Source of the DNA: Eledone cirrhosa
Lineage: Eukaryota
Assembly: GCA_964016885.1 (NCBI GenBank)
Contig: OZ024740.1
Span: 250,356,001 to 250,420,000, forward strand
Direction of reading: 5' to 3'
Length of the DNA: 64,000 nt
The notes below the pieces were generated by a model. It did no database searches. It worked only from the letters and a program-made list of their open reading frames with translations, and was not told the DNA's origin. This document shows, piece by piece, positions 3,262-59,290 of the stretch. The translations under genes were made by a program, and so were the position numbers. Position 1 is the stretch's first letter; the number at the start of each line of letters is the position of its first letter.

Positions 3262-3438
3262 GTTCTCTGTATGTAGGCCCTTGTCATCTTTAAAGAAAAA
3301 AAATTATTTCTTCTTTTTATTCTTCTTCTGTATTATTGTTTTTATATTGTTTACTCGATTTTTCTGTAAAAGCCACACTGTCCCCTATATGTTAGCCCTT
3401 GTGGCCAATAAAGAAATTATTATTATTATCATTATTAT
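3262..3438 (+). mobile_element. 3' UTR remnant of a Tx1-like LINE with (ATT)n tail
   Basis: Ends GCCCTTGTGGCCAATAAAGAAATTATTATT like the other Tx1-like copies. Confidence 0.7.
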
Positions 3439-3440
3439 AA

Positions 3441-3662
3441 AGGGCGGTGGATTGGCAGTATCAATAAGCATCAGATACCATGCTTTGCAGCATAGAGTTA
3501 CGGCCCTTTATGATCTGAGTTCAAATCCTGCCTTTGATCCTTACGGGGTTGATAAAATAAAGTACCAGTCATGCACCGAGGTCGATTTAATCGACGTTCC
3601 CCTCCCCCAAAATTGCTGGCCTTGTGCCTATATAAGAAACCATTATAATTATTATTATTATT
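3441..3662 (+). mobile_element. tRNA-derived SINE, long variant
   Basis: A-box-like TGGCAGTATC, B box GAGTTCAAATCC, central GCCTTT.ATCCTTACGGGGT.GATAAAATAAAGTACCAGT core (resembles the Deu/Nin SINE core, from recall), ATT tail. Confidence 0.85.
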
Positions 3663-6600
3663 GCACATGTGTGAAGACGTTACAAGTCTGCAGGAGAAAA
3701 GGTTCGTAAGTTTAAGTTGTTTTAAAGTATTATTTTGTGTATTTTCTTGTCGATAATGTAGCATAAGGTACCCATCTTGGTTCCAAAGAGAGGAGACCTC
3801 TCAATATTTGGGCTTTAAGCCTGAATATTCGGATTTATTTTAAAACACTTTGAAAAAATCACTTCCCCACCAAAACATAAAAAATTCGACCTTCAAACGG
3901 TAAACAGCTTACAGGTCAAACAGTAAAAAACAACCACTATAGCTCCCACTACTACAACTATTACTACCACAGACATGTGCGATATGTCTGTCGTTAACTC
4001 TACTGAATGTAAGAAGACAACACAAGAGATGGGAGTGGTTAACAACACTGTATCACCTCCAACTGACATCGCCACCACCACTGCTACCATCACAACAACA
4101 ACCAAGAAAAACAACAACATCAACAGCCTCAATATAAGCACTAATAACGGTAGCAGCAGCAACAACAACAACAGCAAGAACGGCAACACCAACAATGAAA
4201 GCAACAACAAGCTCAATGGCGGTGCCACATTTGCAGCAGCAGCAGCCAAAAAGAATGCGCTTTTTCAACGTGGAAATCAGCGATAAGGAATGACAGTTGG
4301 TCAAGGCATGGAGGTTAATTAAACGCGAGAAGTCCTGGGCCAATCTAACCATCCTGGACGAGGCCATAGCAGCCATGCAAAGAAGGACTGTATACTTTCA
4401 ATGCATTTTGGTGCAAACTTGGAAGGTGGTACTCGCCAACCAGGCAGAAGGCGAGGTTGCTTTGGAGTGCATCAAGAGTGATATTGAGTACCAAGTAAGG
4501 GCCAAGCAGTTCGGTACCATCTCAGTTCAAAACCGAGGCCTTTGCTATTAAGCACTCCGTGACCCCCTGCAGAACAGAACGCATTATCATGCACCCGTCC
4601 TACCTGGACAAAAGGACAGTAAAGGTCTGCATTCCTAGGATCCCACCAGGAATGAACCTATGGTGGCTCCTGGGATGTGTAATCGAGGAGGGCACAGACA
4701 CTACCGTCGTAGATATTAAAAAGATGGAGAGAGAGGAATGGATTTGGAGAGTCTTCTCCAAATGAAACCAGAGGACCTCAACAACATCCCGGATTTTGCT
4801 CGCCTGCAGGACGGGAAAACGATTCAATTAATCAGTGAGGGAAGATGCTGCACTCCTTTGTCTGCGGGGAAGCAGCAACGCATCTGCAAGCCTTCTGCCC
4901 TCAGCTCAAAAATGCAGGGGGTCGCAAACCTCCTTCGCTTCCAACGCCAGTGTCGACATGGAAAGCTCCAGCACCACCAACAATGACACGGGGAGCCCCA
5001 CCAACAGCAACAACAGCTGGACCACCACCAGTACCAAAACCAACCCAAGGGGAAAACGAGGAGAGCTCTCCCACTCCCCCTACCCCTCAAAATATACACT
5101 TGGACAAAACCATTAATGCACACGCAGACACAGATACACTCACAGCCAGCAGTGAAGATGAAGGAAAACCCAAAAGTGCCAAAAAACAAAAGAGAAAGCT
5201 CACAAAAAAGCCCTCCCAAAACACAAAAACATACACAACAAAAAATACAGACACTACTAACGCAAACACTTCCCCAATAACATCAACAACATCAACATCA
5301 ACACCACCCTCACAATCCCCTAAACACAAACAACCTAAACAAACACAAGAACAAATAAACACACAGACACCTGAAATTGCAGACACTACACCTACAACAA
5401 ACACAGACATACACGAAACAACACCATCAAAACCATCACCACCACAGTCACCATTCCAGACAGATCCATCCACGAGAACCTCCATCTCATGCGATACATT
5501 ATAGAGAGCGTGGTTAAAGAACCTGGCACGGGTGGGGCCATGATCAACTTGGATCAATCTATAGCATTTGATAGGGTCCACCATCGGTACTTGGCTGCGG
5601 TCCTCGAGGCGACATGCTTTGGGCTCGTTTTCCGGAGCTGGATCACTGCGATGCACAGCGACATCTGCTTGATTGTGAGGGTGAATGTTCACCTGTCACA
5701 GCCGTTTAGCATCATGCGCTCGGTCCGGCAGGATTGTCTCCTCTCGTCCCTCTTGTACATATGAGCTCTCGAGCCGTTACGGCACAAATTGGAGACGATG
5801 GGGGTGAGGGTGTGCCACGCAAACTGGGATGTGGGAGATCCATGTCAGTTTATGCTGACGACGTCACCGTGGTGGTGTCGAGCACCAAACATGTCCAGAT
5901 GCTCGGCATCGCTCTCAAGGAATACGAAACGATGACAGGAGCAAAGATAAACCATGAAAGTCAGTGGGCTTGCAACTCAGCACCTGGAGAGGCAAGACCA
6001 TGCCTTCCGACAGCGTCGTGAGCCGCTGGATGGAAGGACCGATTAAATTGCTCGGGGTCTGGTTTGGTCCGGACCTCCAGATGGAGAAAACAGAGCTGTA
6101 GTCCTGAATCAGGAAAAGACCGAGGGATAGCGCTTGGAAGCTGGAACATCTCCAAGCACTCACAGCCTTCTACCAGCTGGGCACTAGTATTGGCGGAACA
6201 TCCACCTAGTGTAGGGGAAGTGCAACAACATTCTTGGGGAGACCCTGGGTGTCGAAGATGATCAGCTGTTCGCTCTCTTCGAGAGATTTTTTTGCCCAGG
6301 GCCTATGGACAACTTCCAGAAATCCCTGGCCTGGCAGTGCTACCGGGGAGCATTGCTGGTTTGGGATAAACTCTACAGGCACGGAGGTGCTGTCAGCCGA
6401 GCCTGTGCACGCACTTGTTCAGTGCCCGAGAATTGCTGACTTGTGGGGCTATGTCGAACAGCTGCTGTCGTGTGTAGGACGGATCCGGTTATTGACTGAG
6501 TCCATTGCGCAGATAGCCCCACCGTCCTCCTTTAAGGAGGAGGAAGGGCAGGCAGTTTTCATCTGCCTGGTGGCCATGGCGAAAGAGATTGTATGGTGGA

Positions 6601-6998
6601 CAAGGTTGAAAGGATTGAAGATGGACACTTTCCTCTCTGCCAATCCCTGATTAACTTCTTCAAGTTTCACTTGAAGAGTAAAATCAGGGTGGAGAGGCAA
6701 GTGCTGTCATCTAATAAGTTTGTTGAAAGGTGGGTGAAAGTGGTGCGCCTGGTCTGACTGAACGGGCCTGCTCTGAGTATGCGCCTGTAGGCAGAGGAGT
6801 GGGAAAACGGAGGTTTCTCCCTTTTTGGGGAATTTTTGTTTGAATTTGTTTTGATTTGTTTTTACACATTTCTATCTTGTTATAACCATTTTACACATCC
6901 AAAACGCACTTTGTATCGTCCTGTACCATTCTGTGCCGTCTGTAATGTTTTTCTTAATTGTGGCCATTAAAGAAACCCTTATTATTATTATTTTTATT
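3663..6998 (+). mobile_element. Decayed chimeric Tx1-like LINE: F2-type ORF1 joined near 5450 to an F3-type RT and 3' end
   Basis: 4600-5450 matches ORF1 at 36805-37690; 5452 onward matches RT at 29390/45790; ORF2 stop at 6788-6790; ATT tail. Confidence 0.8.
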
Positions 6999-7366
6999 GA
7001 GGTTGACTTTGCCTTTCATCCTTACGGGGTCGATAAAATAAAGTACCAGTAATACAATGGTTAATTGGTGGCCTTGTGCCTAAAGTAGAAACAATTATTA
7101 TTATTATTATTATTATTATTATCATTATTATTATTATTATTATTATAAAGACGGTGGATTGGCAGTATCGGTAGAGGATCGGATGCCATGCTTTGAAGCA
7201 TAGAGTTACCTCCCTGTATGATCTGAGTTCAAATCCCGCCGAGGTTAACTTTGCCTTTCATCCTTCCGGGGTCGATAGAATAAAGTACCAGTAATGCGTT
7301 GGGTAATTGCTGGCCTTGTGCCAAAAGTAGAAACAATTATTATTGTTATTATTATTATTATTATTA
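6999..7366 (+). mobile_element. Two SINE copies (5'-truncated 6999-7146; near full-length 7147-7366), each with an (ATT)n tail
   Basis: Shared core and GGCCTTGTGCC.AAAGTAGAAACAATTATT end. Confidence 0.88.
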
Positions 7367-8113
7367 TCTCTGGCCTGGCAGTGCTACCGAGGAGCCTTGC
7401 CAGTTCGGGATAAACTCTACAGGCATGGAGGTGCCGTCAGTCGGGCATGTCCGAGATGCGCGCAGGGCGACGAAACCGTCCTGCACGCACTCGTCCAGTG
7501 TCCGAAAATTGCTGACTTGTGGGTTTATGTCGAACACCTGCTGTCGCGTTTAGGACGGATCCGGCTATCATCTGAGTCCATCGTGAGGATTGCCCCGCCC
7601 TCCTCCTTTAGCCGGGAAGGGCAGGCAGTTTTTATCTGTCTGGTGGCCATGGCGAAAGAGATAGTATGGTGGACACGTTTGAAAGGGCTGAAGACGAGCA
7701 CTTACCTCTTCGGTGATGCTCTGATTGACTTTTTCAAATTTCATTTGAAAAGGAAAATCAGGGTAGAGAGGGAAGTGCTCTCTTCCCAGCATTTTGTTGA
7801 AAGATGGGTGAGAGAAGCAAGAATAGCCCGAGTGAATGAGCCTACTCTGAGTATATATCTGTAAATTAAAGGTGGAAAACTGGGAGAGGGCACTTGCCTT
7901 GGTGGTCAGGGTCATTGTGTCTTTTTACTGGGCTTTCTCCACAAATGTCCCTCCGAAGGGGAATTTTTCATTGTTATTTTTTGTTACATCCTCTGTTTTT
8001 GTTTTTTACACGCAGAAATGCCCATTTGTACCGTCCTGTATTGTCCTGCACTGTCCTTAATGTCTACTTTATGTAAACCTTTGTGGTTAATAAAGAAATC
8101 ATTATTATTATTA
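7367..8113 (+). mobile_element. 5'-truncated Tx1-like F1 copy (ORF2 C-terminus and 3' UTR)
   Basis: ORF 7343-7864 has CPRC..ETVLHALVQC and is nearly identical to the end of 55097-58516; AATAAA then ATT tail. Confidence 0.92.
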
Positions 8114-11100
8114 TATCATCTAGATCGTATATAGACAGAATCTTCATTAGGAAAATAGATAGAAATAGTGTGGGCTGTCCACTTTTTAAAACGGTCGCCT
8201 ATTCAGATCACAAATTTGTGATCTGTACGGTCGACCTAAATAAAACGCGTAGGTTAGGACCGGGTTACTGGAAGCTGAACATGTCATTTCCGGCACGTAA
8301 GGCTTACAGGGACCGAGTCAATAAGTTAGTTAAGCAAAAGTTGACAGGGGGGATCATCAACATCATCAACAACAGATGGTGGGGGGCTCTCAAAAGAGAG
8401 ATTTGAGTAACTTCGATAGAGTTCAGCAAAGAACTAGCGTTAGAGAAAAATAGAAAGGAGGGGGAGCTGGTAGATAAGTTAGACGAGGCTATTTGTAGTG
8501 GCATCGCAACTGACGTGCTAGCGGCGAGAATGGCATTAGACCATTTCTTCAATGCCAAACACGAAGGTTGCATTGTCAGAGCTAAGGCGCGTGCGCTGAG
8601 AAACGAGGACACTAAAGCTGTTCGATGGGCCCGCGTGGCGGAGGCGCAGCGTGGTAATAAAACCACAATACGGTCTTTGGCGGACTGAGACGGACACGAG
8701 ATAAGCGATTCCAAGCGGATGTGTGAGGCCTTTCGCCAGCACTTTGCTCGGTTGTTCGGGGAGAGTGGCGAGTCAGAGAGAGTAGCGGATTTCAGTCCCT
8801 ACGTTGACGGCTTGCCGCGGATCTCGACGGTCGACGCTGAGCGCTGCGAAAGGCCGATTACTTCAGCCGAAATTCAGGACGCCCTTGTCGGCTGCATGAG
8901 GCGCAAGTCACCCGGCTTGGATGGCCTGCCCTACGAGCTTTACGTAAATATGCCAGACTTGTTCTCCGAACTCCTCGAAGCACTCTACTGTAACTGGCAG
9001 CAGAATGGGAGTATTCCCAGTTCTGTGAGCAGGGGAGTGGTGACGCTGATAAGGAAAGACGAGAACAAGAGGGATACATTAGACAACTTCAGGCCCATAA
9101 CTCTGCTCAACACAGAGTTTAAGATTTTGGCCAAGGTGTTAGCAAAGAGATTGGCGCTTGTCGTCGAGGATTTGGTTGGGGAGGCGCAAACTTGCGCAAT
9201 CCCAGCCAGGTCCATACACGACAATCTCCACCTCATGCGATACATCATAGAGAGGGTAGGGTGTAAACCTGGCTTCGGTGGGGCACTGATCAATTTAGAT
9301 CAATCGAAAGCATTCGATAGGGTCGACCATCGGTATCTGGAGTTTGTCCTCAAAGCAGCTGGCTTCGGCCCTGTCTTTAGAAGCTGGATCGTTGCAATGC
9401 ACAGCGGCACACGCTCGGTGGTCAAGGTTAATGGCCACCTCTCGGAACCATTTCGGCTCTCCCGATCGGTCCGTCAAGGGTGCCCTCTCTCTTCCCTTCT
9501 GTACGTATTGACTCTCGAGCCTTTACTGCGGAAGCTGGAGCTGTTGCAGGGCATCCCGCTCGAACCGGGACGTGGAAAGGCGGTGTCGGCTTATGCGTGA
9601 TGGTGTCGAACACCTCAGAAATCGAGGTGGTCGGCACCTTATTGAAGGAATATGAAAGGTTGACAGGAGCCAAACTTAACCCGGAAAAGTCGGTGGGCTT
9701 GCAGCTCGGAACCTGGAGAGGCAAGCCCATGCCGTCCAACAGCGTCGTGGGGCGCTGGACGGACGGACCAGTAAAGTTGCTCGGGGTTTGGTTCGGACCT
9801 GACCTCCAGGTGGAAAAGAATTGGGACGAGGTAACGAGCAAAGTAGCCAGTCTCACCCAAAAATGGGCTGGGAGGAAGTTATCACTGAAAGGTCGCGCGG
9901 AGGTGGCGAATGCGTACATCGCGTCCGTCATCTATTACCGCCTAACCGTCGTGCCTTGCCCCCGTCCGCGCCTCGTCAAGTTGGAACGGCTCCTCTTCAA
10001 ATTCTTGTGGAGGGGACAAGTTCCGTTGGTGAGGCGGTCAATCTGCTGCCAGCACCCTCTACGCGGAGGGCTGGGCATGCCGTGGCTAATGATGCGCAGA
10101 CATGCGTTGAGGCTGCGACATCTCCAGATATTCTGCCTCAATGGTGAACAGGTGTGGTCGCCGTTTATCAGACGGGCCTTTCCGCAGCTCATTTCTTTGA
10201 CTGAGCTGCAGTCCTGGGTCAAGAAGAGACCGAGACTGGGTGACTGGCACCTGGAATGTTGCCAGGCACTTACTGCCCTCTACCAAGCGGGAAATGCGAT
10301 CAGTGGAACTTCCACTCTCGAGTTATATAGAGGATTAGTGGTGGGCAAGTGCGATGACGCACTCGGAGAAGCTTTGGGCCTCGACGAAGTCGAACTGACC
10401 AGTCTGTACCGGAGGACTTTTGAGCCGGGGACGATGGACAATTTCCAGAAATCCCTCACTTGGCAGTGCTACCGGGGGGCACTGCCGGTTCGGGATAAAC
10501 TCTACAGGCACGGAAGTGCTGTCAGACGGACCTGCCCAAGATGCGCACAGAACGACGAAACCGTTCTGCACGCACTTGTCCAATGTCCGTGCATTACTGA
10601 CTTGTGGAGTTATGTCGAACAGCTACTGTCGCGTGTGGAACGAATCCAGTTATCGGCCAAGTCCATAGTGAAGATCGAGCCGCCACCTTCCTTAGGTCAT
10701 GAAGAGCAGGACATTTTCCTCTGTCTGGTGGCAGTTGCGAAAGAGATTATATGGTGGACCAGGTTGAAAGGACTAAAGACAGACACTTTTCTCTTCGGCC
10801 AATCCCTCATCAACTTCTTCAAGTTTCACCTGGAAAGGAGGGTGAGGGTGGAGAGAGAAGTGCTGCCCCCAGTACATTTGCTAAAAGGTGGGTGAATGTG
10901 GCGAGAATGGCTCGTGTGAATGGGCCTACTCTGACCATGCGCCTATAGGCTGGCTAACTTGAGGAGAGGGGTGCTCTCCTGGGTGCCCTAGAAGCGCAGG
11001 GTGGTTCAGGATTGGTGGGGTACCCGAATCACCCCAGGGTCGTCCACACCCTATCGGGGAATTTATTTTGTTATATTTTGCATAGTTTATTTTATATTTT

Positions 11101-11222
11101 ATATTTTCATTGTTAAATTAGTCTTGCCATTGTGCACTTTTACTCGACCTTATTGTAAACCCCCACTGTCCCTGTCTTTGTATTGTCCCCTACATGTCGG
11201 CCCTTGTGGCTAATAAATGAAA

Positions 11223-11284
<62 letters not shown>

Positions 11285-11285
11285 G
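8114..11285 (+). mobile_element. 5'-truncated Tx1-like F2 copy, ORF2 broken
   Basis: ORFs 8083-8406, 8719-9600 and 9480-10895; near-identical to 38645-41744; a small deletion near 9597 removes the DD of YADD; tail of about 20 ATT units. Confidence 0.93.
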
Positions 11286-13582
11286 TTCTTTGAGTCTCAG
11301 TCATTGATGTTAGTTAACTGGAAAGTTTGTTGAAATGAATATCAAGGCTCTACCTGCAGCCTCAGATATTCAGGACGTATCGGAGGGTTCTTGCTGTTTC
11401 CAGCAAGCATGCCTTTTGAAGCGTTCCAAAAAGGGTGGCGGGGCTAATTTTTTTTAACCATCCCTGGAAACTTTTTGAGATAGTACCTAGTGCGCCTATG
11501 ACAATCGGGACCACATTGACTTCATGGCAGTTCCAAATCCTTTTTACCTCCCACTTTAAGTCCTGGTATCGGTTAATTTTCTCCCTCTCCTTCTCTTGCA
11601 CTCTCGTGTCGAATGGGCAGGCCACATCCACAATCAGGCACGATCTTTTTTCCTGGTCCAAAACCACCAGGTCAGGTCTATTGTGTTCCTGTTTCTTATC
11701 CGTCTGTATCCTAAAATCCCACAGCACCTTCACCTGATCGTTTTCTATCACCGACTCTGGCTTATGCTCATACCACTTCTCAGAATGTGGTAAATTGATT
11801 ACTTTGCATAGGTGCCGGTGGATCACCCTGCCCATCACATCATGTCTCCAGCCTTTATAGTGAGTCTGGGCTAGGTGTTTACACTCGGATACAATGTGCG
11901 CCACAGTCGCCTCTCTCTCTCCACAGATCCTGCACAGTAGGCTAGCCTCCTTGTAAATATGGTGTTTCAACCACTTCGTTTTGAGGGCCTGCTCTTGCGC
12001 AGCCATTAGCATTCCTTCTGTAGCCTTTTTAAGGTCTCCTCTTTTCAACCAGTTCCATGTCTGTGGATCTCTGAATTCAGTTTTCTCAAAGAAGGTACTA
12101 TGAAAGGATTTTTCACGAAGGCTGCTCTTTCTCCTTGATGTTATTTCCTCCTGGGACATCCCCTGGTCTATTGTCCTCTCCTTCAGTACAATTCTGAGCA
12201 TTGGCTCCTTACTATCAGTCACGTATTTATGTAGGTTGTTTTTCTCTATCTGAACACAGTCCTCTATGCTGATAAGACCTCTTCGACCTTCAGATCTCCT
12301 TAAGTAGAGTCTATCGACATCACTCCTCTTGTGGAACATGTAGATAGTCAATAGCTTCCTAGTCTTTCTATCCATTTCTTTTTGTTCAGCAACATTCCAT
12401 CTCAGAATTTCCGCACTGTACCTGATAATAGACACAGCTCGGAAATTTACTGAACTTATGGCATTCCTACTGTTCAGATGTGGCTTTAATACGCTCCTTA
12501 CTTTCCAAATGTATTCAGATCTTATCAATTCCTTCATTTTTTTGTTCTTGATGTCATCAGCCTCCAGAACACCCAAATACTTGTATCCTTCTTCAGTGTC
12601 AATTTCCTTTATCATCTCACCTGTTGGTACCTGGATTCCGTTGCTTCTGCTCAATTTACCCCCCTTCATCACACGGACTCCACACTTACTAATACCAAAT
12701 TGCATACATATATCATTGCTGAAAATATGGACAGTGTCAACAAGCACATCCAACTTCTCACACTTCCCGAAGAGCTTAAGATCGTCCATGAAGAGGAGGT
12801 GATTGATGGTAAGCTCTCCTTTTCCCAACTTGTATCCTGCTCTCACTTTTTGCAATAAAATGGTCAGGGGTATCAGGGCAAAGACAAACAGCAGAGGGGC
12901 CAAACTATCTCCCTGGAAGATACCTCTCTGGATCTTCACACCTCCCAAGGATTCTCCACCGAATGTTAACTCTGTTTCCCAGGACTTCATACTTTTGCTC
13001 AACAACTGTCTGATGATATCTGCCACCTTGAAGATCTCTACTAGGCTTTTGGTTATCCAAGAATGAGGTACCATGTCAAATGCCTTTTTGTAATCTATCC
13101 ATCCCATGGCAAGACCAGTGTGTCTCCTCTTGCAACTCCTCATTACGTTTGTACCACGGGACTTCTTTCGACATCCTTTTTGTTCGTCCGGTAACAAGTT
13201 GTTTATGTGGAGGTGATGGTAGATTTTCTCAGACACAATGCTTGTTAACAGTTTCCACATTACAGACAGACATGTGATAGGTCTATAGTTGGTAACATCA
13301 TTACCCTTGATTTGGTCTTTCATTACCAGAACTGTGGTACCTTTTGTCAAACACTCTGGTACCTCACCTGACATCAAGCAGTAATTGAACATGGTTGTCA
13401 GTTTCGGGTGGAGGGATGTTATATTTTTAATCCAATACCCCTGCACACCATCTGGGCCTGGTGATTTCCAGTTGGTTAGCCTTTTTGCCTGTCCCTTAAG
13501 AGTTTCAACTGTGATACTCAAATCAGTTTGTTGGTGTGCCTGTTCACTAATCTCCTTTGGAAGGAAGGAGATTAGTGAACAG
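11286..13582 (-). mobile_element. 5'-truncated R4/Dong-like non-LTR element (family A)
   Basis: RT plus C-terminal restriction-like endonuclease; 3' end abuts (TAA)n on its own sense strand. Confidence 0.9.
11362..13521 (-). CDS. RT and restriction-like endonuclease polyprotein (partial, 719 aa)
   Basis: WKSPGPDG, YRPITCL, IDYKKAFD, QGDSL, LFMDDL, CRIC..H..C, RHD, PDLVV..IVDV, KINRYQDL, IVIGALG. Confidence 0.9.
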   Translation of the reverse strand: MSITVETLKGQAKRLTNWKSPGPDGVQGYWIKNITSLHPKLTTMFNYCLMSGEVPECLTKGTTVLVMKDQIKGNDVTNYRPITCLSVMWKLLTSIVSEKIYHHLHINNLLPDEQKGCRKKSRGTNVMRSCKRRHTGLAMGWIDYKKAFDMVPHSWITKSLVEIFKVADIIRQLLSKSMKSWETELTFGGESLGGVKIQRGIFQGDSLAPLLFVFALIPLTILLQKVRAGYKLGKGELTINHLLFMDDLKLFGKCEKLDVLVDTVHIFSNDICMQFGISKCGVRVMKGGKLSRSNGIQVPTGEMIKEIDTEEGYKYLGVLEADDIKNKKMKELIRSEYIWKVRSVLKPHLNSRNAISSVNFRAVSIIRYSAEILRWNVAEQKEMDRKTRKLLTIYMFHKRSDVDRLYLRRSEGRRGLISIEDCVQIEKNNLHKYVTDSKEPMLRIVLKERTIDQGMSQEEITSRRKSSLREKSFHSTFFEKTEFRDPQTWNWLKRGDLKKATEGMLMAAQEQALKTKWLKHHIYKEASLLCRICGEREATVAHIVSECKHLAQTHYKGWRHDVMGRVIHRHLCKVINLPHSEKWYEHKPESVIENDQVKVLWDFRIQTDKKQEHNRPDLVVLDQEKRSCLIVDVACPFDTRVQEKEREKINRYQDLKWEVKRIWNCHEVNVVPIVIGALGTISKSFQGWLKKISPATLFGTLQKACLLETARTLRYVLNI

Positions 13583-13607
13583 CACCTTATTATTATTATT
13601 ATTATTA

Positions 13608-13989
13608 CAGTTGCATTTATCTTGCTTTATGTTCATACGAGTTATCACCAAGTCACAACCAGTGACCTCAAGAGACAACAAGGTCCGCCATGTTCAAGAA
13701 AGAACATACATACTCACACATGCATCTTTAGTGTTTAGACTTGTGATGTACTTATATTGACAGAATCTTCCTTAGTATATGGGCAGTTCCCATTAGTACT
13801 ATTTTTTGTATTTCTCCTATACGCGGGTTTCCTGGGATTTGCGATAAGTAATCATTAGACCCCTTAGGTATCATTCCCAGAGCGCCTACAACCACTGGTA
13901 TTGTTTTAGTTCTCAATTTCCACATTTTTCCAATTTCTATCTCCAGGTCCATATACTTGCTCAATTTTTCAAATGTTTTTATAGATACA
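13608..13989 (-). mobile_element. 3' fragment of a second R4/Dong-like family (family B)
   Basis: ORF 13752-13964 KYMDLEIE..PVVVGALG..GTAHILRKILSI is homologous to the RLE C-terminus; different 3' UTR; flanked by (TTA)n and (TTC)n(TTA)n. Confidence 0.8.
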
Positions 13990-14036
13990 TTCTTCTTCTT
14001 CTTCTTCTTCTTCTTCTTATTATTATTATTATTATT

Positions 14037-24840: not shown

Positions 24841-24894
24841 GATGAAACTATCTTGCACATAATCAGCTTGAGCATTGCTGACTTAAGGGTTTAT

Positions 24895-46427: not shown

Positions 46428-46617
46428 AGTATCCCCCTCTATTGGGGAACTTTTCATTGTTATTTTTTTGTTGTTACATCCACAGTTTTTGTTTTTTACA
46501 CGCAGAAATGCCCTTTTGTACCGTCCTGTATTGTCATGTACTGTCCTTAATCTCTACTCTATGTAAACCCTTGTGGTTAATAAAGAAAGCATTATTATTA
46601 TTATTATTATTATTATT
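46428..46617 (+). mobile_element. 3' UTR tip of an F1 copy
   Basis: Matches about 58610-58786. Confidence 0.82.
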
Positions 46618-47092
46618 GTTCTTTGAGTCTCAGTCATTGATGTTAGTTAACTGGAAAGTTTGTTGAAATGAATATCAAGCCACTACCAGCAGCCTCAGAT
46701 ATTCAAGACGTATCGGAGGGTTCTTGCTGTTCCCAGCAAGCATGCCTTTTGAATTATTATTATTATTATTATTGTTATTACTCTTTGAGTCTCAGTCATT
46801 GATGTTAGTTAACTGGAAAGTTTGTTGAAATGAATATCAAGCCACTACCAGCAGCCTCAGATATTCAAGACGTATCGGAGGGTTCTTGCTGTTCCCAGCA
46901 AGCATGCCTTTTGAATTATTATTATTATTATTATTGTTATTACTCTTTGAGTCTCAGTCATTGATGTTAGTTAACTGGAAAGTTTGTTGAGATGAATATC
47001 AAGCCACTACCTGCAGCCTCAGATATTCAGGACGTATCGGAGGGTTCTTGCTGTTCCCAGCAAGCATGCCTTTTGAAGCGTTCCAAAAAGCG

Positions 47093-47094
<2 letters not shown>
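46618..47094 (-). repeat. Three tandem 3' tips of R4/Dong family A, 162-bp period including an ATT spacer
   Basis: CTTTGAGTCTCAGTC at 46621, 46783 and 46945; matches 11286-11430. Confidence 0.9.
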
Positions 47095-50100: not shown

Positions 50101-52820
50101 TTAGAACATTAGACGAGGCGCTTAGCAAAGGCATCGCGACCGACGTACTTGCGGCGAAATTGGCCCTTGACCAATTCTTCAATGCAAAGCACGAAGGCTG
50201 CGTTGTCAGAGCTAGGGTGCGTGCTCTCAGATTGAGGGGACGAATGCCGTTCAATAGGCCCGAGTGGCGGAGGCGCGTCGTGGCAACGAAGCCACGATCC
50301 GGTCTTTGGTGGACCACGACGGCCGCATGCTACTCGATCCCGGGCAAATGTGTGAAGCTTTTCAGCGACACTTCGCACAGCTGTTCGGGGGCAGCGGCGG
50401 GTCGCATCGAGGGATGGACTTTAGTGTCTACCTCGACGGACTGCCGCGGCTCTCGGCCACTGAGGCGGAATGTTGCGAAAAGCCGATAACAGCCGCTGAA
50501 GTACGGGAGGCAATGACTGACTGCACAAGGGGTAAATCGCCTGGTTTGGATGGTCTGCCCTATGAACTTTACGTACAGATGCCAGACTTGTTCGGAGGCC
50601 TCTTGGCGGACGTCTACTGCAACTGGCAACAGAACGGGAGAATTCCCAGCTCTGTGAGCCGAGGAGCTGTGGCGCTGCTGAGAAAGGATCCGAACAAGGG
50701 GGATAACATAGATAATTTCAGGCCCATAACTCTGCTAAACACAGAGTTCAAGATTTTGGTCAAGGTGCTAGCAAAGAGGTTGGCGCTTGTCGTGGTCTGG
50801 TGGGAGAGGCACAGACGTGCACCATTCCCGACAGATCCATCCACGACAACCTCCACCTCATGCTATACATCGTAGAGAGGGTAGCTAGGGAACCTGGCAC
50901 GGGTGGGTCCTTGATCAATTTAGATCAGTCGAAAGTTTCGATAGGGTCGACCATCGTTACCTAGCGGCAGTCCTGAGGGCGGCTGGCTTCGGGCCCGTCT
51001 TCAGAGGCTGGATCGCTGCCATGCACAGCGACATCTGCTCTGTGGTGAGAGTGAACGGTCACCTTTCGGAACCGTTCAACATAATGCGCTCGGTCCGCCA
51101 AGGATGTCCCCTCTCGTCCCTCTTGTATGTATTGACCCTCGAGCCATTACTGCACAAACTGGAGACGTTGAGGGGAGACCCGCGCGAACTAGGATCCGGA
51201 AGATCCGTGTCAGCATATGCGGACGATGTCACCGTAGTGGTGTCGAACGCCAAACACATCGAGGCGATCGGCACTACACTAAGAGAATACGAAGCGGTGA
51301 CAGGAGCAATGATCAACCAGGAAAAGTCAGTGGGCCTGCAGCTCGGCACCTGGAGAGGCAGGTCCATGCCGTCCAACAGCGTCGTCGGGCGCTGGACGGA
51401 CGGACCGGTTAAATTGCTAGGGGTCTGGTTCGGTCCGGACCTCCAGACAGACAAAAACTGGGTCGAGGTGACGAGCAGGGTGGCTTCTCTCACCCAGAAA
51501 TGGGCCTAGAGGAAGCTATCCCTGAAAGGTCAAGCGGAGGTGGCTAACGCGTACATCGCGTCCGTCATCTACTACCGCCTGACCGTCGTACCTTGTCCTA
51601 AGCCCCGCCTGACTGCGCTAGAGCGTTTGCTCTTTCGCTATTTGTGGAAGGGACGCGCTCCGATGGTCAGACGGTCCATCTGCTGTCAACACCCGCTACG
51701 TGGAGGGCTGGCCATGCCGTGGCTGATGATGCGCAGACACGCGCTCAGGCTACGACATCTCCACCTCTTCCTCGATGGTGATCAGGTGTGCTCGCCGTTT
51801 GCTAGAGACGTATTTCCCCAGCTCGTCTCTTTGATGGAGCTGCAGTTCTGGGTCAAGCGAAGACCGAGAGGGAGCGCTTGGAGACGGGAATGTCTTCAGG
51901 CGCTCACAGCTCTCGACCAATCGGGCAATGTGATCGGTGGAAACTCCACCTTGGCGTTCTATAGAGGATTAGTGGAGGGGAAGAGCGACGACGTACTTGG
52001 AGAAACTCTAGGCGTCGACGAAAATCAACTAGCCAATCTCTTCGGAAGGACTTTCGGGCCGAGGCCTATGGACAACTTCCAGAAAGCCCTGGCCTGGCAG
52101 TGCTACCGAGGAGCTTTGCCAGTTCGGGATAAACTCTACAGGCGTGGAGGTGCCGTCAGCCGGGCATGTCCGAGATGCGCGCAGGGCGACGAAACCGTCC
52201 TGCACGCACTCGTCCAGTGTCCAAGCATTGCTGACTTGTGGGTTTATGTCGAACACCTGCTGTCACGTGTAGGACGGATCCAGCTATCAGCTGAGTCCAT
52301 CGTGAGGATTGCCCCGCCCTCTTCCTTTAGCCGGGAAGGGCAGGCAGTTTTTATCTGTCTGATGGCCATGGCGAAAGAGATAGTATGGTGGACATGTTTG
52401 AAAGGGCTGAAGACGAGCACTTACCTCTTCGGTGATGCCCTGATTAACTTTTTCAAATTTCATTTGAAAAGGAAAATCAGGGTAGAGAGGGAAGTGCTCT
52501 CTTCCCAGCATTTTGTTGAAAGATGGGTGAGAGAAGCAAGTATGGCCCGAGTGAATGGGCCTACTCTGAGTATCTGTCTGTAAATTAAAGGTGGAAAACT
52601 GGGAGAGGGCACTTGCCCTGGTGGTCAGGGTCACTGTGGCCTTTTAATGGGCTTTCTCCACAAATGTCCCTCGGAAGTCTCCCACCTATTGGGGAATTTT
52701 TCATTGTTATTTTTTTATTACATCCTCTGTTATTTTTTACACGAAGAAATGCCCATTTGTACCGTCCTGTATTGTCCTTAATGTCTACTTTATGTAAACC
52801 CTTGTGGTTAATAAAGAAGG

Positions 52821-52857
<37 letters not shown>
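47127..52857 (+). mobile_element. Full-length Tx1-like F1 copy with frameshifts and stops
   Basis: 5' GGCGACCTAC start; ORF1 about 47341-49150; ORF2 49185-52583 in pieces; ATT tail. Confidence 0.94.
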
Positions 52858-53066
52858 GGCGACCTACGTAGGAAATCGTATTATCGTGAGCTCCGCAAAG
52901 GTTTGTTATTTCCGTTTGTTTAAAAATTGCCATTTATGGAAAATTTTATTGTAAACTGTTTATAAGCACACATACATTGTTTTCCGAAAAGGACACCCAA
53001 AAAGATTGGGGCCTTGTGCCCAAAATTTTAACTTTTATTATTATCCAAAAATTTCTTTGAAAAAGA

Positions 53067-55062
53067 ATGGCTAATTCCCCTCTGCACGAAGCAGCTGAAA
53101 GCCTTCCTCACAAAATAACACCTCACACCGACACCACCATTGTAAATGTTACTACGTTTGCCAACACAAAAAAAAATATAAACAGTAGCAATATTTTTAA
53201 TTTGTCTCAGGCAGACATTCATTTCCCGCCATTACCAATGACTGCAGGTGTTAAACCCTCCACCACCACCACCACCGCGACAACCACCACCACCACCACC
53301 ACCACCGCGACAACAGAAACAAAAGAAGAAAAAAATAAATTAACTCGTGACGTCGAAATGAAATCAAGCAAAATGGACTCTTCCCCACCAAAGACGACTG
53401 ACGTCACAACCACCACAACTGAAAATAAAATTAATATTAACGATAGCAACAACAACAACAATGACATTATAAAACCGACCCTCAGTTTCGGCATCGTAGC
53501 AAAACAATTCGAAGCGTTCACGGTAACCCAAGAAGATTTAGAAAATGCCAAACAAATGGTAAAGAAAGATGGGTACAGGGTCAGCCTCACCCCCCCCCCC
53601 CCCACCTAATAAAATGGAGCATCGGCGCCTGTGCACCGTGTCGTATAGAACAATAAATGTAAAATCGCGCCGAGTGGAACGGGCATCCGAGTCCCAAATC
53701 CAAAAAGCTTTGGGACATGTGTGGGCAAGAAAAACCCACATCAGACGTGGGCAAAAGTATGGAACCGTGGATGTGTTCTTTGAAACACCAGAGGAGGCTA
53801 GAGAACACTCCATGGCCCCATTAAAAAGTGACGACCTCACACTCGTCCCAAGCTATTGTGGCCAGAGACTCGTAAAGATCAGGGTGACCCACGTTCCACC
53901 AGCCATCGAAATTCCCTGGCTAATAGCGGCTGTCCTCACCGGCATCGAAGCCAACACGAAAATAATAGCAGTAGCAAAAGAAAAGCAGGAAAACTGGTCC
54001 GGATCTGGGATGGAGCTCCTGATCCAAGCGGACCTAAAAAGCATTGAGGAGATCCCAGAGGTAATAGACCTCACTGACGGCAGCCACCTCACGGTAATTG
54101 TCGAGGGCAGAAGACCTAGGTGTGTCGTTTGTGGTGAAGGAACCCACCTAAGGGCTTTCTGCCCTCAGGCTAAAAGGTTGAGGCCACCTCTCCTACCCAC
54201 CCCAGTGACAAAACCATCAACACCACCAGTAGCAGAGATGGCAGCAACAACTGTAGCAGCAACAACAGAAGCAACTATAACAGCAACAACCCCAGCAACA
54301 GTAGCAAAACCAACACCACTACCACCACCAGCAAAACCAACACCACCACCACCCAACGCTTCAGAACTAGCACCAGCGCCTACACCATCCACCACACCAC
54401 AACCAAAACTAACGGCTGTGGAGGATTTTCCACTCCCCGGCCTATCACAACTGGAGACAGATTGTGACGACGAGGAGTGGGAAACGATATCCGGAAAAAA
54501 AAAAAGAAACCAAAAAAGAAAAAATTCTCTTCCTTCCCCCTCCAAAAACAAAATACAGAGGGAAACAAATAAACTAAGAAACAAAAAAGTTAGGACAGAT
54601 ATGCCACCATCCACACCAGCATCACCAACCCCATCAACCCAAACACCAACACCATCACCATCATCATCCCCAGCACCACCATCACCTACACCACAAAAGT
54701 CACCAAAAAGCGAAACAGAAACAAACCCACAACAAACGCAAACAAAACAAAACAACCAAAACGATACACACTACACAGCATTAAATTTGAACAACAAGCA
54801 ATTATTACACTACATCCAACACAACACCAGCATCACAGAAAAAGACTACACAACAACCCCAAAATTCACACCACCTCCACACATACAAATCACTCGCATC
54901 ACACAGAAAACGTACATGACACTAAAACAAAAATTCCCCAAAGACATCGGAGACTTCCGACAAGCACTCTCCAGGAGGATTTATAAGGACATCCTTCCTG
55001 AGGAGGCCACAAGCAGTGAAAAGGATGGAAAAGCCGTCCTTCCCCTACGAGAAGTAAGGTAA
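53067..55062 (+). CDS. ORF1 nucleic-acid-binding protein (RRM-like region, CCHC knuckle, Pro/Thr-rich linker, basic patch); one frame break at the C run 53590-53603
   Basis: ORFs 53067-53609 and 53569-55062; CVVCGEGTHLRAFC is CX2CX4HX4C; WETISGKKKRNQKRK. Confidence 0.82.
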
Positions 55063-55096
55063 GTGGTCTTTCCCATCTTTTCCACTCCTTTTCAAC

Positions 55097-58000
55097 ATGA
55101 CCTCACTCAGAATAGGCAGCATAAATGCGCGTGGCTTGGGGTCGTCATGGAAGCAGGGCCACCTGCTCAACGACCTCAGGTCACTAAACATAGATGTAGT
55201 GGCCATCAGCGAGACCAGAATCTCCGAAGCACAGGCTTTCGCACCGATCTTCGGCGGCTACGATGTGTTCGCATCTCCCAGCCGTCCGGGATCGGGGGGA
55301 GGAGTTGCTGTGCTTTTTCGGAGAGGTTTGGATCTTGCCATACGGGCCATCTTCCTGGACCCAGAAGGTAAGTTGGTGGTGCTGGACGTGACCAGCGGAG
55401 ACGGGCAAGCTTTCAGGTTAGTGGCCGTCTATGCCCCGACAGGAGCAGGGCGGCCTGATTTCTTCTGGCGTCTGGAGACCTTTCTTGGAACGTCCCGCTC
55501 TTTAGTGTTAGTGGGCGACTGGAACGGGATCTTAGATGCACGCTGGGATTGTGTGGGATTAGTGGATAGGGAAGGAGGGTGCAAGAGTCTCACCAACCTG
55601 CTCAGACGTTTTGAACTGTTTGACAGGTACCGAATGGATTTCCCGAATGTACCAATGTGGACTTGGACAAATCGCATAGGGTCATCCAGATCATATCTAG
55701 ATAGAGTATTTTGTAGGGAAATAGATAGGTCTAGCATAGGCTGTCCACAATTCAAGATAGTCAGCTACACGGACCACAAATTCGTGATCTGTGTGCTTGA
55801 CTTAGATAGGCTTCATAGACGAGGACCCGGCTACTGGAAGCTAAACGCGTCCTTACCAGCGCGCAAGGCCTACAGAGACCGGATTAGCGAACTAGTTAAG
55901 CGGGCGTTGACGGGGGCCATCGTCAACAACAAGTGGTGGTTTGCTCTGAAAAGAGCAATTAGAATAGAGTCCATTAGGTTTAGTAAGACTTTAGCAATAG
56001 AGAAAAATAGAGCAGAGGGAGAATTAGTTAGAAAATTAGACGAGGCGCTTAGCAAAGGCATCGCGACCGACGTACTTGCGGCGAAATTGGCCCCTGACCA
56101 ATTCTTCAATGCAAAGCACGAAGGCTGCGTTGTCAGAGCTAGGGTGCGTGCTCTCAGACACGAGGGGACGAAAGCCGTTGAATGGGCCCGAGTGGCGGAG
56201 GCGCGTCGTGGCAACAAAGCCACGATCCGGTCTTTGGTAGACCACGACGGGCGCATGCTACTCGATCCCGGGCAAATGTGTGAAGCTTTTCAGCGACACT
56301 TCGCTCAACTGTTTGGGGGCAGTGGCGGGCCGGATCGAGGGATGGACTTTAGTGTCTACCTCGACGGACTGCCGCGGCTTTCGGCCACTGAGGCGGAGTG
56401 TTGCGAAAAGCCGATAACAACCGCTGAAGTATGGGATGCAATGACTAGTTGCACAAGGGGCAAATCGCCTGGTTTGGATGGTCTGCCCTATGAACTTTAC
56501 GTACAAATGCCAAACTTGTTCGGAGGCCTCTTGGCGGACGTCTACTGCAACTGGCAACAGAACGGGAGAATTCCCAGCTCTGTGAGCCGAGGAGCGGTGG
56601 CGCTGCTGAGAAAGGATCCGAACAAGGGGGATAACATAGATAATTTTAGGCCCATAACTCTGCTAAACACAGAGTTCAAGATTTTGGCCAAGGTGCTAGC
56701 AAAGAGGTTGGCGCTTGTCGTTGGTGGTCTGGTGGGAGAGGCACAGACATGCGCCATTCCCGACAGATCCATCCACGACAACCTCCACCTCATGCGATAC
56801 ATCGTAGAGAGGGTAGCTAGGGAACCTGGCACGGGTGGGTCTTTGATCAATTTAGATCAGTCGAAAGCCTTCGATAGGGTCGACCATCGTTACCTAGCGG
56901 CAGTCCTGAGGGCGGCTGGCTTTGGGCCCGTCTTCAGAGGCTGGATCGCTGCCATGCACAGCGACATCTGCTCTGTAGTGAGAGTGAACGGTCACCTTTC
57001 GGAACCGTTCAACATCATGCGCTCGGTCCGCCAAGGATGTCCCCTCTCGTCCCTATTGTACGTATTGACTCTCGAGCCATTACTGCACAAACTGGAGACG
57101 TTGAGGGGGGTCCCGCGCGAACTAGGATGCGGAAGATCCGTGTCAGCATATGCCGACGATGTCACCGTAGTGGTGTCGAACGCCAAACACATCGAGGCGA
57201 TCGGCACTACACTAAGAGAATACGAAGCGGTGACAGGAGCAATGATCAACCAGGAAAAGTCAGTGGGCCTGCAGCTCGGCACCTGGAGAGGCAGGTCCAT
57301 GCCGTCCAACAGCGTCGTCGGGCGCTGGACGGACGGACCGGTTAAATTGCTAGGGGTCTGGTTCGGTCCAGACCTCCAGACGGACAAAAACTGGGACGAG
57401 GTGACGAGCAGGGTGGCTTCTCTCACCCAGAAATGGGCCGAGAGGAAGCTATCCCTAAAAGGTCAAGCGGAGGTGGCGAATGCGTACATCGCATCCGTCA
57501 TCTACTACCGCCTGACCGTCGTACCTTGTCCTAAGCCCCGCCTGACTGCGCTGGAGCGTTTGCTCTTTCGCTTCTTGTGGAAGGGACGCGCTCCGATGGT
57601 CAGGCGGTCCATCTGCTGTCAACACCCGCTACGTGGAGGGCTGGGCATGCCGTGGCTGATGATGCGCAGACACGCGCTCAGGCTACGACATCTCCACCTC
57701 TTCCTCGACGGTGATCAGGTGTGGTCGCCGTTTGCAAGACACGTTTTTCCCCAGCTCGTCTCCTTGACGGAGCTGCAGTCCTGGGTCAAGCGAAGACCGA
57801 GAGGGAGCGCTTGGAGACTGGAATGTCTTCAGGCGCTCACAGCCCTCGACCAATCGGGCAATGTGATCGGTGGAAACTCCACCTTGGCGTTCTATAGGGG
57901 ATTAGTGGAGAGGAAGAGCGACGACGTACTTGGAGAAACTCTAGGCGTCGACGAAAATCAACTAGCCAATCTCTTCGGAAGGACTTTCGGGCCGGGGCCT

Positions 58001-58516
58001 ATGGACAACTTCCAGAAATCCCTGGCCTGGCAGTGCTACCGAGGAGCTTTGCCAGTTCGGGATAAACTCTACAGGCATGGAGGTGCCGTTAGCCGGGCAT
58101 GTCCGAGATGCGCGCAGGGCGACGAAACCATCCTGCACGCACTCGTCCAGTGTCCGAGCATTGCTGACTTGTGGGTTTATGTCGAACACCTGCTGTCACG
58201 TGTAGGACGGATCCAGCTATCAGCTGAGTCCATCGTGAGGATTGCCCCACCCCCTTCCTTTAGCCTGGAAGGGCAGGCAGTTTTTATCTGTCTGGTGGCC
58301 ATGGCGAAAGAGATAGTATGGTGGACACGTTTGAAAGGGCTGAAGACGAGCACTTACCTCTTCGGTGATGCCCTGATTAACTTTTTCAAATTTCATTTGA
58401 AAAGGAAAATCAGGGTAGAGAGGGAAGTGCTCTCTTCCCAGCATTTTCTTGAAAGATGGGTGAGAGAAGCAAGTATGGCCCGAATGAATGGGCCTTCTCT
58501 GAGTATGTGTCTGTAA
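55097..58516 (+). CDS. ORF2: APE endonuclease, reverse transcriptase and C-terminal Cys/His finger (1139 aa, uninterrupted)
   Basis: SINARGL, ISET, VYAP, GDWN, YLDRVF, YTDH; GKSPGLDG, RPITLLN, DQSKAFD, QGCPLS, YADD; CPRC..ETILHALVQC; typical L1/Tx1 layout. Confidence 0.96.
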   Translation: MTSLRIGSINARGLGSSWKQGHLLNDLRSLNIDVVAISETRISEAQAFAPIFGGYDVFASPSRPGSGGGVAVLFRRGLDLAIRAIFLDPEGKLVVLDVTSGDGQAFRLVAVYAPTGAGRPDFFWRLETFLGTSRSLVLVGDWNGILDARWDCVGLVDREGGCKSLTNLLRRFELFDRYRMDFPNVPMWTWTNRIGSSRSYLDRVFCREIDRSSIGCPQFKIVSYTDHKFVICVLDLDRLHRRGPGYWKLNASLPARKAYRDRISELVKRALTGAIVNNKWWFALKRAIRIESIRFSKTLAIEKNRAEGELVRKLDEALSKGIATDVLAAKLAPDQFFNAKHEGCVVRARVRALRHEGTKAVEWARVAEARRGNKATIRSLVDHDGRMLLDPGQMCEAFQRHFAQLFGGSGGPDRGMDFSVYLDGLPRLSATEAECCEKPITTAEVWDAMTSCTRGKSPGLDGLPYELYVQMPNLFGGLLADVYCNWQQNGRIPSSVSRGAVALLRKDPNKGDNIDNFRPITLLNTEFKILAKVLAKRLALVVGGLVGEAQTCAIPDRSIHDNLHLMRYIVERVAREPGTGGSLINLDQSKAFDRVDHRYLAAVLRAAGFGPVFRGWIAAMHSDICSVVRVNGHLSEPFNIMRSVRQGCPLSSLLYVLTLEPLLHKLETLRGVPRELGCGRSVSAYADDVTVVVSNAKHIEAIGTTLREYEAVTGAMINQEKSVGLQLGTWRGRSMPSNSVVGRWTDGPVKLLGVWFGPDLQTDKNWDEVTSRVASLTQKWAERKLSLKGQAEVANAYIASVIYYRLTVVPCPKPRLTALERLLFRFLWKGRAPMVRRSICCQHPLRGGLGMPWLMMRRHALRLRHLHLFLDGDQVWSPFARHVFPQLVSLTELQSWVKRRPRGSAWRLECLQALTALDQSGNVIGGNSTLAFYRGLVERKSDDVLGETLGVDENQLANLFGRTFGPGPMDNFQKSLAWQCYRGALPVRDKLYRHGGAVSRACPRCAQGDETILHALVQCPSIADLWVYVEHLLSRVGRIQLSAESIVRIAPPPSFSLEGQAVFICLVAMAKEIVWWTRLKGLKTSTYLFGDALINFFKFHLKRKIRVEREVLSSQHFLERWVREASMARMNGPSLSMCL

Positions 58517-58786
58517 ATTAAAGGTGGAAAACTGGGAGAGGGCACTTGCCCTGGTGGTCAGGGCCACTGTGGTCTTTTAATGGGCTTTCTCCACAAATGT
58601 CCCTTGGAAGTCTCCCCCCTATTGGGGAATTTTTCTTTGTTATTTTATTTCAACCTCTGTTTTTTTACACGCAGAAATGCCCATTTGTACCGTCCTGTAT
58701 TGTCCTGTACTGTCCTTAATGTCTACTTTATGTGAACCCTTGTGGTTAATAAAGAAAACATTATTATTATTATTATTATTATTATT

Positions 58787-58880
58787 AAATCCCGCCGAGG
58801 TTAACTTTGCCTTTCATCCTTACGGGGTCGATAAAATAAAGTACCAGTAATGTACTGGTTAATTGCTGGCCTTGTGCCTA
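58787..58880 (+). mobile_element. SINE fragment
   Basis: Core through GGCCTTGTGCC. Confidence 0.8.
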
Positions 58881-59290
58881 TTCTTTGAGTCTCAGTCATT
58901 GATATAATTTAACTGGAATGTTTGTTCAAATGAACATCAAGCTGCTACCTGCAGCCTCAGATATTCAGGGCGTATTAGAGGGTTCTTGCCCTTTGAAATG
59001 TTCCAAAAAAGGTGGCTGGACCAATGTTCTTTAACCATCCTTGAAAACTCTTCGAGATAGTACCTAGTGCTCCAAAGACAATCGAGACAACCTTGATCTC
59101 ATGACAGTCCGAAATCATTTTTAATTCTCACTTTAAATCGTGGTATCAGTTAATTTTCTTCTTCTCCTTTTCTTGCACACTTGTGTCAAAGGCGCAGGCT
59201 TCATTTACAATCAGGTACAATCTTTTTTCCTTGTCAAAAACCACCAGGTCAAGCCTATTGTGTTCTAATTTCTTGTCTGTCTGTATCAAA
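58881..59290 (-). mobile_element. Decayed 3' fragment of R4/Dong family A
   Basis: IQTDKKLEHNRLDLVV; the 3' UTR matches 11286-11360. Confidence 0.82.

Follow-up and report, generated by a model that had tools for sequence, protein, structure and literature searches.

The window analysed here is a 64,000-nt stretch of the 3.0-Gb genome assembly of the octopod Eledone cirrhosa (GCA_964016885.1, contig OZ024740.1, here C1, positions 250356001–250420000), and 56 kb of it (3262–59290; coordinates given without a contig are window positions) are occupied by a train of retroelements without long terminal repeats (non-LTR). Its members are long interspersed elements (LINEs) of L1/Tx1-like appearance, a short interspersed element (SINE) and Dong-like elements. 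The LINEs and the SINE read along the strand on which their junctions spell ATT, the Dong-like elements along the complementary AAT strand.

This polarity holds throughout the window's tracts. Perfect ATT, TTA or TAT tracts of at least three units numbered 34 on the plus strand and AAT-class tracts none; adjacent tracts merged to 30, and once those internal to the 5′ untranslated region (UTR) of a LINE (53035) and beyond the train (62836) were set aside, 28 junctions remained in the train. Among tracts of at least four units the window held 27 ATT versus 0 AAT, compared with 18 ATT versus 16 AAT in a control of 40 evenly spaced 10-kb stretches of C1–C3 (400 kb). Homology to the second open reading frame (ORF2) and 3′UTR of the L1/Tx1-like LINEs covered 51% of the train on plus and 0% on minus, against 2.8% of the random sample; the 100-kb flanks showed 20% and 10%, on both strands. 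All seven Dong 3′ ends (six Dong-A, one Dong-B) lay on minus, the LINE 5′ ends at 14037, 41890, 47127 and 52858 were directly preceded by ATT tracts, and no poly(A) tails were seen on train elements. A sequence-only reading of the window had called about 28 (ATT)n junctions all reading ATT on plus, Tx1-like LINEs on plus with no poly(A), R4/Dong-like copies on minus and these four 5′ ends after (ATT)n, and each of these observations stands. Its picture of a train built on (ATT)n holds overall and fails in places: at 24840–29195, where degraded pieces and an unrelated reverse transcriptase (RT) element make the train impure, and at three junctions with no ATT tract (29196; 58880, between SINE and Dong; 59290, the end of the last Dong).

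Read from the left, the train opens with an L1/Tx1-like 3′ end fragment (3262–3415, +) followed by (ATT)4-ATC-(ATT)2, a longer variant of the SINE (3440–3640, +) followed by (ATT)5, and a LINE of family F3 (3663–6978, +) that keeps its 5′ end and has two internal deletions in ORF2. A truncated SINE, (ATT)9-ATC-(ATT)7 and a full SINE (together 6999–7335, +) precede a 5′-truncated F1-type LINE with an ATT tract on either side (7367–8100, +) and a 5′-truncated LINE of family F2 (8116–11224, +; 76% DNA identity to F1), which meets Dong-A tail to tail at (ATT)20 (11225–11284). That Dong-A copy (11285–13586, −) is 5′-truncated and carries a 754-aa open frame, P0002; beyond it lies a 3′ fragment of Dong-B (13608–13989, −; 37% amino acid identity to Dong-A), with (TTC)9(TTA)6 at its 5′ junction. 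Next come an F1-type LINE with its 5′ end kept and internal deletions (14037–19374, +), two full SINEs head to tail with (ATT)6 between them (19400–19790, +), a 5′-truncated L1/Tx1-like 3′ end (19804–20177, +) and an older F3-like LINE that has kept its 5′ end and lost its 3′ end (20202–24839, +). The impure part follows, comprising degraded pieces of L1/Tx1-like ORF1 and ORF2 that lack an ATT junction (25004–26714, +) and the unrelated RT element (26790–29189, +, boundaries approximate), which ends in (GAT)n(AT)29 and which is, by resemblance, putatively RTE-like.

A 5′-truncated F4/F5-type LINE (29196–31255, +) begins directly after (AT)29 and is an exception to the ATT rule. It is followed by a SINE (31265–31451, +) and a long, degraded Dong-A copy (31476–35292, −) that stops at an ATT site which is elsewhere internal to the Dong 5′UTR. 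A SINE, a 5′-truncated F1-type LINE (35529–36664) and a truncated SINE, each bounded by ATT tracts, share 35326–36792 (+); then come an F2 LINE truncated inside ORF1 (36805–41734, +), a short, truncated F4-type 3′ end (41745–41877, +), a LINE of family F4 with its 5′ end kept and ORF2 residues ∼672–1150 deleted (41890–46413, +) and a short, truncated F1-type 3′ end (46427–46590, +). Three 162-bp Dong-A 3′ ends in tandem (46618–47094, −; the triplication is placed at 46591–47077) lead to a near full-length F1-type LINE (47127–52821, +; 96% to the next copy) and to the full-length, 5902-bp F1 LINE (52858–58759, +), which sits between (ATT)12 and (ATT)9. A SINE truncated at both ends (58787–58880, +) meets the closing Dong-type 3′ fragment (58881–59287, −; 69% amino acid identity to P0002) directly.

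Outside the train, a Ty3/gypsy-like pol remnant (181–2769, +; aspartyl protease, DUF7047, RVT_3 and integrase domains, interrupted by stops) adjoins it on the left. Just to its right lie a SINE on minus within (TA)n (60186–60362) and a degraded plus-strand Tx1-like copy (60418–62440); at 62324–62408, 28 bp of a LINE 3′ end are present in triplicate. Runs of (TTC)n/(GAA)n stand beside or in place of ATT tracts at 13990–14034 and at four loci elsewhere in the genome (L024, L229, L275, L368; L numbers denote genomic loci), and possibly reflect another microsatellite-associated family or mutation of the tract.

The LINEs, the Dong-like elements and the SINE

F1 is a two-ORF LINE. A single CX2CX4HX4C knuckle is visible in ORF1 (53067–55062, +), where Pfam made no call; the frame is broken here at a run of 14 C (53590–53603) and is unbroken in other copies, reaching 661 aa in L092. 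A gag-like CCHC knuckle in ORF1 is a feature of the Tx1 clade. ORF2 (55097–58516, +; 1139 aa from its ATG) has the Pfam domains Exo_endo_phos, RVT_1 and zf-RVT, that is, the N-terminal apurinic/apyrimidinic endonuclease (APE; 55097–55852), RT and C-terminal zinc motif of the L1 group (L1/Tx1). Among solved structures its closest match was human L1 ORF2p (E = 1e-51; R2, 1e-20), and the catalytic motifs of its endonuclease align. Around the endonuclease hairpin loop the alignment to human L1 is free of gaps, the loop of the LTX chimera being longer, and the loop gives no positive sign of specialisation. A single-sequence AlphaFold model of the endonuclease had a pLDDT (predicted local confidence) of 41 and was not used, and RNA folds of five element ends did not beat shuffled sequences (best z −1.5).

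A quick RT tree, built without characterised Tx1 or L1 references, joined the four window families placed in it and a protein of Argonauta hians, their nearest named relative (59% identity), in one clade (SH-aLRT 100), while the only TX1-named row (P0010, 32% identity) was not sister to that clade and the deep nodes were unsettled. ‘Tx1-like’ is accordingly used here as a putative label, drawn from architecture and target preference rather than from tree placement. Among contigs of four sequencing runs compared with F1, close relatives of ORF2 were also present in runs of two further organisms. In one further family, F6 (copies L264, L266, L269, L270, L279, L360, L366 and L368), ORF2 and the 3′UTR match F1 at 95% from F1 position 2158 onwards and the 5′UTR and ORF1 differ, as if by a swap of the 5′ half, with the ATT junction rule unchanged. 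Within the 5′UTR of F1 itself, 53005–53043 looks like what is left of a SINE 3′ end with (TTA)3 behind it, which suggests that a train junction was captured there.

The Dong-A frame P0002 combines RT, a CCHC finger and a C-terminal PD-(D/E)xK-type motif; a full-length homologue, P0197, shows RVT_1, a weak zf-RVT and HSDR_N_2, with Exo_endo_phos absent. A single ORF of this make-up, with a restriction-like endonuclease (RLE) and no APE, and (TAA)n flanks on both sides on the element strand are the marks of the Dong/R4 group. The name ‘Dong’ is a provisional one given for architecture and target, and the 120 homologues listed were unnamed or ‘hypothetical’.

An imperfect ATT site internal to the Dong-A 5′UTR lies at 35286–35325, and 35292 is hence not a true Dong 5′ end. 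Of 30 unselected Dong-A copies (L280–L359), 28 carried one to three SINEs at this site, without exception in ATT-strand orientation. Wherever a copy could be followed into the distal UTR, the site recurs beyond the last SINE; in the single clearly empty copy it is mutated. Some copies have the first SINE junction in common and so inherited it. This occupancy far exceeds background, and sequence context, open chromatin and inheritance are candidate causes. The head-to-head Dong/SINE pairs (26/30 scored) might have arisen by twin priming, with the second-strand nick of Dong serving to prime SINE RNA; this was rejected because the Dong 5′UTR resumes beyond the SINEs with the site duplicated. Other irregularities near these elements are an inverted repeat of fold-back type where Dong-A is truncated at its 5′ junction (13545–13586), a 5′ inversion in one SINE copy (L162), and a sequence recurring directly after F1 3′ tracts at L045, L047 and L055, which may belong to a third Dong-like family and be its end on the minus strand.

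The SINE is less exacting than the LINEs. In random DNA its 3′ flank was ATTAT in 26/33 copies and (ATT)3 in just 2/33, and T occupied position 5 of the target in 52/57 copies, with variation beyond; its presumed specificity for (ATT)n is therefore not borne out, the site being a short, loose ATTAT with the polarity of the LINE target. Exact non-repeat target site duplications (TSDs) of 10–20 bp were found in 18/58 copies, against a mean of 0.7 and a maximum of 4 in a shuffled control, and TSDs together with variable 5′ truncation are as expected of a SINE. Its box-like motifs match by eye the tRNA A/B box consensus, and it resembles an octopus repeat; Rfam gave no hit for it at gathering score, nor any match at that score in a scan of 3000–60000. 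The last 30 nt of the SINE align with LINE 3′ ends through a common block, CC-TTGTG-(G)CCAA..GAAA, and the similarity exceeded that of shuffled sequences for F4 (p = 0.003) and F2 (p = 0.02) and was not significant for Dong. It is likely that the SINE is mobilised by the present LINE clade.

Flanks across the genome and the fate of the target

The arrangement extends well beyond the window. F1 5′ ends, found by an exact 24-nt pattern, numbered 2336, of which 2176 (93%) directly followed (ATT)3 and none followed AATAAT. F1/F6 3′ ends, found by a 23-nt pattern, numbered 9101; in 7776 the next bases were ATTATT and then a base other than T, and as 191 of these stop at C or G, 7585/9101 run on as ATTATTA. 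Ten of the first 100 3′ ends failed the pattern, and of these eight begin ATT, the others CTTATT and AATATT, with no case of poly(A). For Dong, 30/30 best 3′ matches (one of them the window copy) run into (AAT)n, and truncated 5′ junctions lay inside (AAT)n in 31/37 cases among the loci at hand. Genomic copies with non-ATT 5′ flanks or random orientation, which would have spoken against the sequence-only reading, were thus not the pattern seen, and its proposal that two unrelated endonuclease classes use one repeat in opposite polarity extends to the whole genome.

Of the 20 best F1 matches fetched, 19 were full-length at 98–99% identity, 11 had an unbroken ORF2 and three had both ORFs open, marking the family as recent. 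Copies also cluster: at the start of C1, 35/99 neighbouring 3′ ends fell within 15 kb of one another (uniform expectation 3.3), and 31 of the 35 close pairs were co-oriented. The first 30 F1 5′ ends on C1 were preceded by a Tx1-like tail (11), Dong (7), a SINE (1) or other DNA (11), and the neighbours of the first 30 3′ ends were classified as a Dong tail (12), a Tx1-like head (5), a SINE (2) or other DNA (11), although Dong-A/B homology makes up 0.6% of random DNA. The arrangement is common, and the window shows a long instance of it. A second recurrent site, an imperfect ATT/GTT tract after an AT-rich run in another repeat family, has been entered by F1-type copies with seven different truncation points (L221, L231, L246, L249, L258, L272, L274).

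Since tail and target are inseparable in pure tracts, imperfect targets were examined, in a set of 33 entries for truncated F1-type copies with a 3′ flank that departs from pure ATT within three units. Eight of the 33 showed exact duplications of 13–19 bp that begin immediately behind the element, and two more showed weak duplications in repeats; two additional TSDs, of 17–19 bp and 25 bp, came from outside this set. The 15-bp duplication at L084 added no ATT unit at all, and L360 and L368 each have one. An element-encoded ATT tail is therefore not required, and the claim that each insertion adds a new target through its tail is not supported at such sites. The wider claim, that the site survives each insertion so that trains can grow, is upheld by stacking at the Dong 5′UTR site, by clustering and by the reuse of tracts. 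The target is regenerated by its own duplication, without an obligatory tail.

Full-length copies behave differently at their 5′ ends. In all 12 informative cases the 5′ end was reached through four or more ATT units, so that the junction is pure ATT even at imperfect targets. Evidently it formed within pure ATT, either because the cDNA end annealed there or because a second cut likewise depends on ATT. Such junctions are not an independent test of targeting and the 93% figure is in part a property of junction formation, the independent evidence being the 3′ flanks and the truncated copies. In two places LINE 3′ ends recur at ∼6.07-kb spacing, six with an identical imperfect junction at C1:441098534–441134912 and four at C2:188056358–188074641, either through tandem amplification or as an effect of assembly.

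Growth of the train, rival explanations and precedents

These observations are best accounted for, with a probability of about 0.75, if the train consists of separate non-LTR copies stacked by repeated target-primed reverse transcription (TPRT) into a site duplicated at every insertion. From the geometry of TPRT, the APE-type ORF2 would use as primer an AAT-strand nick that lies just 5′ of top-strand ATTATT, and Dong a nick in the ATT strand, an opposition that would apply to the productive nick only. Truncated LINEs and SINEs leave a TSD of 10–20 bp, by which one tract becomes two with a gain of about six units, and the element's last base, C, together with the duplicated ATTATT rebuilds the original junction. 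Full-length 5′ ends join in pure ATT, probably by annealing of the cDNA end to ATT repeats, a step that an (AUU)n leader of the RNA may mediate. The new tracts are then entered again by the same family, sister families, Dong and the SINE, reuse that gives rise to Tx1 runs arranged head to tail and to Tx1/Dong junctions that are tail to tail or head to head. The SINE would be mobilised by these LINEs with relaxed specificity (ATTAT), and tandem duplication adds a minor share.

Several observations weigh against this account. Four of the 35 close 3′-end pairs lie on opposite strands, one of the two SINEs abutting 3′ ends is on the opposite strand (L219), truncated F1-type copies follow (AAT)n at L225 and (TTC)n at L229, and there is one unverified call of a Dong in opposite polarity. 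The 37 Dong junctions came mostly from loci fetched for neighbouring LINE/Dong matches and are biased to trains, and, given the shared first SINE junctions, the 28/30 SINE-bearing Dong copies are not all independent. Similarity of the SINE tail to that of F1 did not reach significance (p = 0.075) and did not exceed its similarity to the RTE-like element (p = 0.093). TSDs were found in only 10/33 entries for truncated copies; in many entries the 5′ boundary is uncertain because of internal deletions or the age of the copy, and that set, picked for short 3′ tracts, favours tail-less cases. Finally, 8/12 full-length copies had no duplication of the imperfect 3′ target and 4/12 had one of 30–50 bp, two of these in tandem arrays; full-length ends thus fall outside the simple TSD rule.

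Polarity might instead arise from pairing between RNA and primer, a loosely AT-specific APE nicking either strand and only a nick that can pair, at its 3′ end, with the terminal (AUU) of read-through RNA being extended; this would alter only the priming step, and is a possibility to be held tentatively. The SINE, probably moved by the LINE's enzyme, needs only ATTAT, the polyadenylation-like AATAAA about 6 nt before the tract implies that read-through RNA would enter AUU repeats, the gap-free hairpin loop is in keeping with it, and RNA–target annealing has been proposed for SART1 and R1Bm (PMC7265360; here and below, citations refer to excerpts of the papers). F1-type LINEs are, however, far stricter than the SINE (7585/9101 ATTATTA against 2/33 (ATT)3), which calls for an extra selector, and domain swaps between TRAS1 and SART1 showed that the endonuclease sets the target (PMC7265360). 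A further version, that of the sequence-only reading, supposes that the element brings along an (ATT)n tail, templated by RNA, and so makes a new tract wherever it inserts. The 3′ tracts of young full-length copies are indeed longer than the 5′ tracts (median 16 against 10), and in pure tracts a tail would be indistinguishable from target; it is nevertheless improbable, as at imperfect sites the duplicated target begins at the first base after the element, with no ATT unit whatever at L084, as SINEs stand in random DNA without a tract, and as unique sequence was repeated outside both tracts at 0/19 full-length loci, by eye.

The ∼6.07-kb arrays with identical imperfect junctions (six copies at C1:441.10–441.13 Mb, four at C2:188.06–188.07 Mb) and the 162-bp triplication in the window lend something to the idea that trains arise mainly from tandem duplication, unequal crossover between tracts or co-mobilised read-through transcripts. 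Neighbours in the window, though, belong to families 68–97% alike, have differing truncation points and include Dong copies on the opposite strand, a mixture that tandem duplication cannot explain, and as a general cause this is very unlikely. Misassembly at microsatellites would fit the position of all junctions within repeats, yet junctions of these types are found at thousands of loci, and neither paired imperfect TSDs nor the total lack of wrong-strand 5′ joins is expected of misjoins, so that hardly any weight is left to it.

Beyond stacked insertion into a site duplicated each time, a broader and more speculative view is that the octopod (ATT)n LINE clade, its SINE and Dong share one strand-polarised niche in which members supply targets to one another. 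LINE RNAs would start in upstream (AUU)n and anneal at both ends, the cycle would make much of the genome's ATT content and its transposable element (TE) hotspots, and the clade would be the missing partner of a SINE with several hundred thousand copies; taken as a whole, this is doubtful.

Each ingredient has a precedent. Among Tx1 families, Kibi targets (TC)n and Koshi (TTC)n (PMC3812793), and crocodilian families target (TTCC)n and (TTTC)n (PMC4494074). These resemble the window LINEs in being APE-type elements of the L1 group that enter microsatellites, whereas the window LINEs, compared here by target only, use (ATT)n, live in an invertebrate host and share the site among at least six sister families. 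Dong (R4 clade) targets TAA repeats in silkworm, mosquito and the snail Biomphalaria (PMC3812793), so that a single-ORF RLE element with (TAA)n flanks on its own strand has a mollusc precedent; unlike Dong as described there, the window Dong shares its repeat with an APE family of opposite polarity and has a 5′UTR ATT site nearly saturated with SINEs. Convergence of unrelated endonuclease classes on one target is known from Keno (APE, Tx1) and Utopia (RLE), both of which insert at one site in U2 small nuclear RNA (snRNA) genes (PMC4640811). As far as those excerpts go, Keno and Utopia have a common 3′ flank in a gene, while the window pair uses opposite strands of a dispersed, regenerated microsatellite.

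TRAS1 and SART1 are both APE elements of the R1 clade; that pair is telomeric, in contrast to the interstitial APE and RLE pair of the window. They otherwise offer a parallel of two LINEs in one simple repeat, entering (TTAGG)n of Bombyx in opposite directions (PMC7265360). Head-to-tail tandem TEs formed by double insertion, for example of R1 or the P element, where the TSD and target preference keep the site and unequal exchange may expand the array (PMC5932611), share the site-preserving principle with the trains, which differ in stacking many families of three element types genome-wide. In octopus the L1-Tx1 and Dong-R4 classes are abundant (PMC13282606, PMC8967140), with 421 and 1129 recently active insertions, respectively, in Octopus vulgaris, and TE hotspots (PMC13282606). 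The text of these two reports, as excerpted, holds no analysis of target sites, polarity or a SINE partner, and no target information was found in the excerpts of PMC8967140, PMC3747384 and PMC4758252. No description of a Tx1-like family targeting (ATT)n/(AAT)n, or of octopus target sites, was found in the literature, although Repbase, Dfam or supplements may hold one; nor was any found of a Tx1-like clade sharing Dong's repeat in opposite polarity, for which a Repbase entry is conceivable. In the literature covered, four features thus appear to be undescribed: the target, the host group, the candidate partner of the SINE, and APE and RLE elements paired on opposite strands of a dispersed microsatellite.

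Through this finding, (ATT)n joins the targets known for APE-type LINEs of the L1 group, and does so in an invertebrate. With thousands of young copies, several of them intact, target choice is open to statistical and in vitro study, and the pairing of APE with RLE allows a direct comparison of how two kinds of enzyme divide the strands of a single repeat between them. Microsatellite markers of the ATT/AAT type will, in genomes like this one, often lie at element junctions. For the octopod genome itself, the trains offer a candidate partner LINE for a very abundant SINE and a concrete, testable cause of TE hotspots and strand-polarised ATT tracts.

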